From: an uncultured Acidobacteriota bacterium
Lineage (GTDB): Bacteria > Acidobacteriota > CAIWXX01
Direction: 5' to 3'
Assembly (NCBI GenBank): GCA_903916735.1
Contig: CAIWXX010000053.1
Location: 26,260 to 90,259, forward strand
DNA length: 64,000 nt
Shown piece after piece: positions 19,109-20,151 of the stretch (positions are counted from its first letter, which is position 1; every line of letters begins with the position of its first letter). The notes beneath the pieces are model-generated. The model saw only the letters and a list, made by a program, of their open reading frames with translations. It searched no databases and was not told the origin of the DNA. The position numbers and the translations under genes are program-made.

Positions 19109-19810
19109 TTACATATACCCTTGAATGAGGCCGCGCACGAGCAGATCCCAGCCATCAATCATGATGAAAAGCAGCAATTTGAAGGGCATCGAGACAGTCG
19201 GAGGTGAAAGCATATGCATGCCCATCGCGAGAAGAATATTCGAGACGACCATGTCGATCACCAGGAACGGCAAGAAAATCAGGAACCCGATCATGAAGGC
19301 TTCCGACAACTCGCTCACGGTGAATGCAGGAATCAGCACGAGCATGTCATCCTGTGTCATCGAGTCTTTCCACTCGGGTGGCCCCATTCGGGTGGCCAGC
19401 TGCAAAAACAGCGCTTTCTCTTTTGGATGAGCGTGTTTTTTTAAAAACACCCGTAGCGGCTCGCGCGCCTTATCCACCAGATCAAAAACCATCTGCGCAC
19501 CGGCTGGCGAAACAATGTCCTGCCCTGCCGGCTTCATAAGAGTCGGTTGGATGGCCGTGTAAATCTGCGATCCCACGGGAGACATGACGTAGATCGTCAT
19601 GATGATCGACAGGCCCATGATGACAGGGGATGGCGGGACTTGTTGTGTACCGAGTGCACTGCGCAGAATTGAGAACACGACAGAGAACTTGACGAAAGAT
19701 GTTGCCATCATCAAAAGGAACGGCGCCAGAGAAAGGAGACTGATCATGATCAACGTCGTGAGCGGATTCCCGGCCCACGCACTCGGTGATAGACCACTTG
19801 CAGGGTTCAT
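19109..19810 (-). CDS. sctR: T3SS export apparatus SctR (FliP/YscR)
   Basis: LIMISLLSLAPFLLMMATSFVKFSVVFSILRSALGTQQVPPSPVIMGLSIIMTIYVMSPV is the FliP signature. Start placed at the ATGA overlap with the upstream FliO-like gene (19807-19810); the ORF track extends to 19954. Confidence 0.88.
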   Translation of the reverse strand: MNPASGLSPSAWAGNPLTTLIMISLLSLAPFLLMMATSFVKFSVVFSILRSALGTQQVPPSPVIMGLSIIMTIYVMSPVGSQIYTAIQPTLMKPAGQDIVSPAGAQMVFDLVDKAREPLRVFLKKHAHPKEKALFLQLATRMGPPEWKDSMTQDDMLVLIPAFTVSELSEAFMIGFLIFLPFLVIDMVVSNILLAMGMHMLSPPTVSMPFKLLLFIMIDGWDLLVRGLIQGYM

Positions 19811-20151
19811 TCTTCGAAATCTCCTTCTACGGGCGCTGCCCGTTTCTGTTCTTGCAGGATCTTCTTGAAAGTCGCCTGTTGATCCGGCGGCCTGGCCTGC
19901 AGGAGCTGAACCCGATTGGGTGATGTCGCCAGCAGCAATTGCGAATCCTCCCATCGGACGATATACAATCGATGGTTACGATCGAGCGCAAGGAATTCGT
20001 CGACCTGCAAGCGCCGCGCTTTTCCTCCCGGCCTGTACCGCAGGAACAACGGGAGGCCGAATCGCAAGACGAGATAGGCCAATGCCGTCACGGCGAGAAG
20101 GGCGGCGAAAGTGCGTAGGATCAGCCATGCTTCCTGTGATGCGCCCATCAA
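19807..20151 (-). CDS. FliO-like small single-TM protein
   Basis: 114 aa. One TM (WLILRTFAALLAVTALAYLVLRF), then RRLQVDEFLALDRNHRLYIVRWEDSQLLLATSPNRVQLL, resembling the FliO conserved core. Sits between the sctQ-like and sctR genes exactly where fliO sits in flagellar operons. Confidence 0.5.
   Translation of the reverse strand: MMGASQEAWLILRTFAALLAVTALAYLVLRFGLPLFLRYRPGGKARRLQVDEFLALDRNHRLYIVRWEDSQLLLATSPNRVQLLQARPPDQQATFKKILQEQKRAAPVEGDFEE

Follow-up and report, generated by a model that had tools for sequence, protein, structure and literature searches.

We have found that a 64-kb stretch of DNA from an uncultured Acidobacteriota bacterium (64,000 nucleotides of contig CAIWXX010000053.1; the whole stretch is referred to below as the window) carries a small fliO-like gene between sctQ and sctR of a cluster that, to judge from its sequence, is a type III secretion system of the non-flagellar kind (NF-T3SS). 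The product of this gene is a genuine FliO-family bitopic inner-membrane protein by profile, by architecture and by position. The reading we favor, at a probability of roughly 0.72, is that it is a FliO-family protein belonging to the export-gate operon of a probably acidobacterial NF-T3SS, that it most likely serves as a chaperone of SctR, and that it is most simply a retained flagellar feature. Of the proteins associated with the export gate, FliO is the one that has long been cited as distinguishing flagella from injectisomes. The initial annotation of this DNA likewise described it as generally flagellum-specific, a description overtaken by a 2025 report of FliO homologues in the NF-T3SS operons of Myxococcota and Pseudomonadota (PNAS, PMC12403147), a survey that takes in both M. 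xanthus systems and six orders of Pseudomonadota. FliO in an NF-T3SS has thus been known since 2025, and the window adds a further case, probably from Acidobacteriota, to a kind already described. The elements on which the argument turns are these:

19807..20148, (-) strand: fliO-like coding sequence, 113 amino acids plus stop (Pfam FliO, hhalign, orthologue and gene-caller starts, ratio of nonsynonymous to synonymous substitution rates, dN/dS)
20153..20160, (-) strand: Shine-Dalgarno sequence GGGAGGAG, 4 nt 5′ of the fliO-like ATG (read from the sequence)
20041..20127, (-) strand: predicted single transmembrane helix, residues ~8-36 (Kyte-Doolittle windows up to 2.12, basic C-terminal flank)
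19891..20010, (-) strand: FliO core, a four-strand antiparallel β-sheet at residues 47-86, predicted to be cytoplasmic (AlphaFold2 strands and Pfam match)
19821..19827, (-) strand: sctR Shine-Dalgarno sequence GAAGGAG within the fliO-like coding sequence, 10 nt 5′ of the sctR ATG (read from the sequence)
19807..19810, (-) strand: ATGA, in which the sctR start codon and the fliO-like stop codon overlap (read from the sequence; junction conserved)
19109..19810, (-) strand: sctR, 233 amino acids, the presumed client of the FliO-like protein (TIGR01102)

The resemblance to FliO that had been proposed from the sequence was borne out by a profile search, in which the protein matches the Pfam family PF04347 over residues 42-101 with a score of 33.5 bits (E 4.7e-8), the gathering cut-off being 22. 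The same cut-off is passed by each of the four relatives scanned independently (28.6-42.7 bits), and the sole NCBIfam match of the protein is TIGR03500, FliO, with an E value of 2.3e-11. When an alignment of 58 sequences from the clade to which the protein belongs was compared with FliO of E. coli K-12 using hhalign, the two aligned over 83 columns that span the transmembrane helix and the β core (probability 89.8%, E 1.8e-6), with an identity to E. coli FliO of 29%. No PDB chains related by sequence to the protein were found. The single transmembrane segment and FliO-like core described in the initial annotation are also recovered, since hydropathy indicates one transmembrane segment and the AlphaFold2 model (mean predicted local distance difference test score, pLDDT, of 75) has a helix at residues 3-37 (pLDDT >90), four strands at residues 47-54, 60-66, 69-76 and 79-86, and a further helix at residues 88-103. 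The transmembrane segment is followed by the basic flank RYRPGGKARR, and because of this flank the C-terminal domain is predicted to be cytoplasmic. The conserved core of FliO has been described as a transmembrane helix plus a small cytoplasmic β-sheet (PMC12403147), and the agreement of the predicted architecture with this core supports membership of the family.

The minus-strand open reading frame (ORF) at 19807-20151, from which the gene was first called, exists as described and begins with a TTG at 20151, directly after which comes an ATG at 20148. On 16 metagenome contigs independent gene callers choose the ATG, all orthologues begin at it as well, and it is the likelier start of the gene; the length of 114 residues originally given is therefore that of a real ORF, but a protein of 113 residues is the likelier product. 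The gap between the end of sctQ and this ATG is 31 nt. At the other end of the gene the stop codon TGA (19809-19807) overlaps the sctR ATG (19810-19808), just as had been noted from the sequence, and sctR has its own predicted ribosome-binding site inside the fliO-like gene. We considered the possibility that the fliO-like ORF is an N-terminal extension of sctR, separated from it by a frameshift or joined to it in a fusion, and rejected it: the frames differ, each gene has its own ribosome-binding site, and the two are called separately in all loci.

A profile search recovered 85 relatives of the protein; approximately 68 clusters at 90% identity, which make up a tight clade, score above 100 bits, beyond which scores fall steeply. 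We read in context five diverged orthologous loci (L003, L004, L008, L009 and L010; 54-59% amino-acid identity), and in all five the order FHA-SctQ, FliO-like, SctR is kept. The 4-nt overlap between the fliO-like gene and sctR is present in six of six loci when the window is included, the orthologous junction being ATGA in four cases and GTGA in one. Pairwise dN/dS lies between 0.15 and 0.49 for the fliO-like gene and between 0.05 and 0.36 for sctR, values that are only rough because dS is saturated (about 1-3). Purifying selection on the fliO-like gene is evident from this comparison of coding sequences. Conservation is concentrated in the transmembrane helix and the β core, while the tail is variable; the last 25 residues show little conservation and were modeled with low confidence, and the C-terminal helix and tail are specific to the clade. 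Identical synteny is found in two metagenome-assembled genomes (MAGs) of Acidobacteriota, GCA_040755995.1 (named 'Acidobacteriota bacterium') and GCA_002898535.1 (named 'bacterium HR11'), the latter of which is placed by GTDB in the Acidobacteriota class HRBIN11 (PMC12403147, Dataset S2). Together with this placement, the names of relatives at 54-57% identity indirectly make a related lineage the probable source of the window.

A scan of a genome collection with the FliO-like protein returned one distant relative, at 34% identity, in a Myxococcota MAG (locus L001). There the FliO-like gene (3814-4173; Pfam 42.7 bits) is followed by a SctR-type gene, and the pair (3814-4933) is flanked by genes for an MFS transporter, a GH113 protein, a formyltransferase and RsmB; a scan of the ten longer ORFs on the same strand within 14 kb recognized no further type III secretion system (T3SS) genes. 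We also note three unrelated contigs, from metagenomes or MAGs, on which a gene of the FliO family sits just 3′ of the rpoA-rplQ end of a ribosomal protein operon (L011, 10001-10336; L019, 8001-8294; L018, 8001-8402), with SctS-, SctT- or SctR-type genes scattered nearby among genes of other kinds (DsbA, TANGO2 and DUF2804). This arrangement looks like a dispersed mini-set that lacks the remainder of a T3SS.

The position of the gene is that of fliO in flagellar operons, as the initial annotation had pointed out: the flagellar slot, after fliN/sctQ and before fliP/sctR, is identical, and flagellar fliO overlaps fliP by 1 nt in E. coli and by 4 nt in Sphingomonas and P. aeruginosa. The FliO-like protein of the window thus resembles flagellar FliO of Salmonella and E. 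coli in its family, in its transmembrane helix and small cytoplasmic β-sheet, in its operon slot and in its overlapping 3′ junction; it differs in sitting in a non-flagellar cluster and in having as its presumed client a SctR-type protein without a signal peptide. In five canonical injectisomes, by contrast, there is no gene between sctQ and sctR, and sctQ abuts or overlaps sctR; these were the systems of Yersinia pCD (Ysc), Shigella pINV (Mxi-Spa), the Ralstonia megaplasmid (Hrp2), a Bradyrhizobium plasmid (rhizobial) and a Providencia plasmid. That FliO is as a rule missing from injectisomes, which was stated explicitly in the literature in 2017 (PMC5542435), accordingly holds for each of these five families.

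SctR of the window lacks an N-terminal signal peptide, unlike flagellar FliP, and when compared with plasmid-borne systems it is most similar to AscR (52% identity) and YscR (49%), followed by HrcR/RhcR (43-44%), flagellar FliP (~40%) and Spa24 (38.5%). In a neighbor-joining tree of 19 SctR/FliP sequences (220 columns, 200 bootstraps) flagellar FliP stands apart from all others with a bootstrap of 100%, the canonical SctR proteins of systems without FliO form a group with a bootstrap of 85%, and the clade of the window groups with L001, L016 and L018 with a bootstrap of 87%. In each of these last three loci the gene for the SctR-type protein has a FliO-like neighbor, either next to it or no more than a few kb away. 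NCBIfam labels are consistent with the groups in the tree; SctR of L001 scores 204.6, which is below the SctR cut-off of 208.6 but above its own score for FliP. In a previous phylogenetic study the root was placed between the Myxo systems and all other NF-T3SS (Abby & Rocha 2012, PMC3459982). Our tree mirrors this root and fits a history in which FliO was retained in early branches and lost once in canonical injectisomes. As far as sequences allow us to judge, the fliO-like gene would most simply be a flagellar feature that early-branching non-flagellar systems kept and canonical injectisomes lost.

How the FliO-like protein might act is suggested by its homologue in Salmonella, where FliO stabilizes FliP and is required for formation of the FliP-FliR complex (PMC5542435, PMC5542437). 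We infer by homology that the protein of the window interacts with SctR and assists its assembly, and that the overlap of the two genes influences translation. In such a scheme the FliO-like protein would be a membrane chaperone or scaffold that binds newly inserted SctR, the homologue of FliP, and shields it from degradation; it would then help the SctR5-SctT core to form, and would depart from the finished machine. The ATGA junction, and the placing of the ribosome-binding site of sctR within the fliO-like coding sequence, might allow chaperone and client to be co-translated at one membrane site.

It could be argued that the gene is an ordinary flagellar fliO and that the export apparatus encoded by the cluster is flagellar, or a degenerate form of the flagellar one. 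Clade members are named 'flagellar biosynthetic protein FliO' by NCBI and JGI, and Dataset S2 of PMC12403147 lists the HRBIN11 orthologue GBC84145.1 of GCA_002898535.1 (113 amino acids; L010, 6023-6364) among 'flagellar FliO homologs', with a non-flagellar count of 0. In addition, SctS, SctT and SctU are ambiguous, the flagellar equivalogs giving them slightly better scores than the Sct ones, the FliJ equivalog cut-off is cleared by SctO, and the gene order is colinear with fliF...flhA operons. The same gene order, however, matches that of ysc (E-F-G-I-J-K-L and N-O-P-Q-R-S-T-U), and three comparisons favor the non-flagellar type: by NCBIfam, SctR scores 234 bits with TIGR01102 (cut-off 208.6) and 195 with FliP (cut-off 217.45), SctV scores 777 bits with its Sct equivalog (cut-off 692) and SctN 608.5 bits with its own (cut-off 604.75), whereas the flagellar equivalogs are below cut-off for all three alike. 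SctR is also set apart from FliP by the tree and by its want of the FliP signal peptide. SctJ reaches 146.5 bits with the SctJ model (cut-off 161.95) as against 52.7 bits with FliF, and an internal start gives MKKHIWLLMVILAMPLVTSC, which contains a lipobox, and a short protein of 268 residues; this internal lipoprotein signal (MKKHIW...LVTSC) is probably the true start of SctJ. Lastly, YscO-like, SctI-like, CdsG/SctY-like and LcrH-like genes are present in the cluster, and no FliG, FliM, FliE, rod, hook, MotAB or flagellin/filament genes were found among the ORFs scanned across the window. On account of the SctR, SctV and SctN equivalogs, the lipoprotein SctJ and the non-flagellar gene content, we therefore classify the cluster, by its sequence, as an NF-T3SS, and consider the flagellar interpretation largely refuted and very improbable.

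A different objection accepts the FliO fold and disputes the job: the protein might be a permanent small subunit or adaptor, or a regulator of gate opening, and not a transient chaperone of SctR. It could, for example, anchor at the export gate either the FHA-SctQ sorting platform or the ring proteins with FHA/TIG domains. The unusual cytoplasmic parts of the system (FHA-SctQ, two more FHA proteins and a conserved 326-residue protein) speak for such a role, as does the C-terminal helix and tail peculiar to the clade. FliO homologues in contexts without any T3SS suggest functional plasticity (PMC12403147), and the dispersed FliO-like genes beside ribosomal operons point the same way. Yet the tight coupling that is invariant is with sctR and not with the FHA genes, the part of the protein that is conserved is exactly the transmembrane helix and β core common to flagellar FliO, and the variability of the tail argues against a conserved extra interface; we regard a job of this kind as unlikely, though deserving of some weight. 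That the ORF might be spurious, or a decaying remnant without function, could be suspected from its small size and from the poor conservation and low-confidence model of its last 25 residues. Such an ORF would hardly be expected to give above-threshold profile matches in five independent sequences, to form ~68 clusters at 90% identity with dN/dS well below 1, or to keep an intact ribosome-binding site, a start codon and an overlap with sctR, and we take this possibility to be refuted by conservation at the sequence level, its probability being negligible.

There are nevertheless several points that weigh against a retained SctR chaperone. The score of the protein with TIGR03500, 43.5 bits, is below the equivalog cut-off of 55.25 for flagellar FliO, so that by sequence it is a member of the FliO family yet not a flagellar-FliO equivalog by the NCBI criterion. 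The client would differ from the known client of FliO, because SctR of the window has no cleavable FliP signal peptide, and since canonical injectisomes assemble SctR without FliO the need for such a chaperone here is not self-evident. The evolutionary argument, for its part, depends on a neighbor-joining tree of a single protein with 19 taxa and 220 columns. We still prefer the SctR chaperone, at the probability given above.

The cluster to which the gene belongs lies entirely on the minus strand. Its order from 5′ to 3′ begins with the 292-residue protein with a needle-like C-terminus, an LcrH-like TPR protein, the 67-residue and 86-residue ORFs, the CdsG/SctY-like TPR protein, the SctI-like protein, a GNAT protein and SctJ; it continues with the 326-residue protein, SctL, SctN, SctO, a SctP/FliK-like protein, FHA-SctQ, FliO and SctR, and ends with SctS, SctT, SctU, SctV, an FHA protein and an FHA-TIG (SctD-like) protein. 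The features of the cluster and its upstream flank that are discussed here are as follows:

11063..31402, (-) strand for all genes: the whole NF-T3SS cluster (profile scans, gene order)
31642-32367, (-) strand: sigma-70-family factor of 241 amino acids, with regions 2 and 4, directly 5′ of the cluster
30524-31402, (-) strand: Gly/Gln/Met-rich low-complexity protein of 292 amino acids, whose last ~55 residues weakly match a needle-subunit model (Pfam E 0.0027)
29604-29807, (-) strand: ORF of 67 amino acids in the yscE slot (position)
29347-29607, (-) strand: ORF of 86 amino acids in the yscF slot, between the 67-residue ORF and the TPR protein (position)
28910-29311, (-) strand: CdsG/YscG-like TPR protein (CdsG/SctY/HrpB1-like)
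27647-28315, (-) strand: GNAT acetyltransferase between the SctI-like gene and sctJ
26602-27675, (-) strand: sctJ, longest ORF, which overlaps the GNAT gene by 29 nt
25612-26592, (-) strand: conserved protein of 326 amino acids between SctJ and SctL (the SctK slot in ysc, the FliG slot in flagellar operons)
20180..21757, (-) strand: sctQ with an N-terminal FHA fusion, 525 amino acids (Pfam FHA and FliMN_C; best NCBIfam match SpaO_YscQ)
13117-13845, (-) strand: FHA protein 3′ of SctV (profile scans)
11063-13120, (-) strand: second FHA protein 3′ of SctV, with a TIG domain (profile scans)

The fusion of FHA to SctQ is kept across the clade (L004, L006, L007, L009 and L010). The FHA-TIG protein, of 685 residues, may be the equivalent of SctD, but its score with the SctD model is just 18.6 bits. 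The 326-residue protein has four relatives at 37-57% identity, with which it shares many invariant Trp and Pro residues, and a profile search against PDB and NCBIfam gave no match. A faint match of this protein to MgtE_N (E 0.17) was not used as evidence, and its AlphaFold2 model (pLDDT 46) was unusable. The sigma-70-family protein encoded directly upstream may be a dedicated sigma factor for the cluster. A scan of the cluster for promoters and terminators gave counts no higher than those in shuffled controls.

The initial annotation placed the gene in a needle-type T3SS cluster. The cluster is indeed a non-flagellar T3SS, as far as its sequence can tell us, but the needle itself is weakly supported, and no secretin (SctC) was found in any ORF of at least 110 amino acids scanned across the window, nor adjoining the cluster in L009 and L010. 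The protein of 86 residues in the yscF slot has 20 relatives among 1.84 billion representatives, and these share a conserved C-terminus, SNIMKARHDxAxxAIRNxR, that resembles needle proteins. It gave no match to Pfam, NCBIfam or PDB, either singly or as a profile of 20 sequences, and its comparison with YscF and MxiH by hhalign gave a weak match (probability 19%, P 0.0012) with the C-termini in register. Weak needle_F matches are present in a 157-residue protein and in the 292-residue protein, the latter of which ends in GVIRNIR and is perhaps secreted as an extended protein resembling a needle or a tip. The label 'needle-type' is no more than plausible for the cluster, support for its needle candidates being weak or positional.

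The cluster can be compared with several described systems. With canonical injectisomes it shares the ysc order E-F-G-(H)-I-J-K-L and N-O-P-Q-R-S-T-U, and the sizes of the genes are parallel too; these systems, however, have a secretin and clear SctF and SctD proteins by the cluster, whereas the SctF and SctD candidates of the window are weak. With the Myxococcota and Pseudomonadota cases of PMC12403147 it has in common a FliO-family gene within a non-flagellar T3SS operon, although the relatives of the window are Acidobacteriota MAGs, including one of class HRBIN11, and its FliO-like protein has no LysM or AMIN domain. There is also a likeness to the early-branching, secretin-less Myxo-type NF-T3SS ('T3SS*', Abby & Rocha 2012): no secretin lies near the window cluster, as in the secretin-less Myxococcota systems, FliO is present, the core proteins of the window score between flagellar and Sct models, and the SctR tree supports a sister-group position. 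The host phylum differs, and SctQ of the window has an FHA fusion. Moreover, the Myxo systems have been reported to be without needle, rod and chaperone genes (PMC3459982), while the window cluster contains candidates for all three (SctI-, CdsG/YscG- and LcrH-like genes, as well as those for the 86-residue and 292-residue proteins).

It is tempting to see in this combination an undescribed family of NF-T3SS in Acidobacteriota, sister to the needleless Myxococcota systems, that keeps FliO and carries needle, rod and chaperone genes in a ysc-like order, and our literature search found no paper describing a non-flagellar T3SS in Acidobacteriota. We put this forward tentatively and with more doubt than conviction. 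If such a family exists, the loss of FliO would be dated after the invention of the needle, and the family would be an extant intermediate linking the export apparatus of flagella to the canonical injectisomes. Surveys that score FliPQR plus FliO as 'flagellated' would then mis-score genomes of this kind. The case of GCA_002898535.1 is instructive in this regard. In the text of PMC12403147 HRBIN11 is not listed among the non-flagellar cases, and Dataset S2 records a single FliP and a single FliQ for this genome, in which FliR was not detected, with the orthologue of our protein counted as flagellar FliO. The sole export apparatus of GCA_002898535.1 is this non-flagellar-type cluster, and since its orthologue was scored as flagellar despite this, such systems may be included among the genomes that FliPQR-based surveys count as 'flagellated'.

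What the window adds to the known occurrence of FliO outside flagella is an acidobacterial context, a correction to a 'flagellar' label in a reference survey, and a hint of a FliO-bearing system that already has needle-type accessory genes. The practical effect is modest, in that the annotation 'flagellar biosynthetic protein FliO' in these MAGs is not evidence of flagella. The FliO-like protein and its signal-peptide-less SctR form a compact natural pair with which to ask whether the chaperone activity of FliO extends to SctR-type proteins. Because FliO has so long been quoted as the divider between flagella and injectisomes, each non-flagellar system that keeps it helps to date when, and to explain why, injectisomes dropped a chaperone for SctR.

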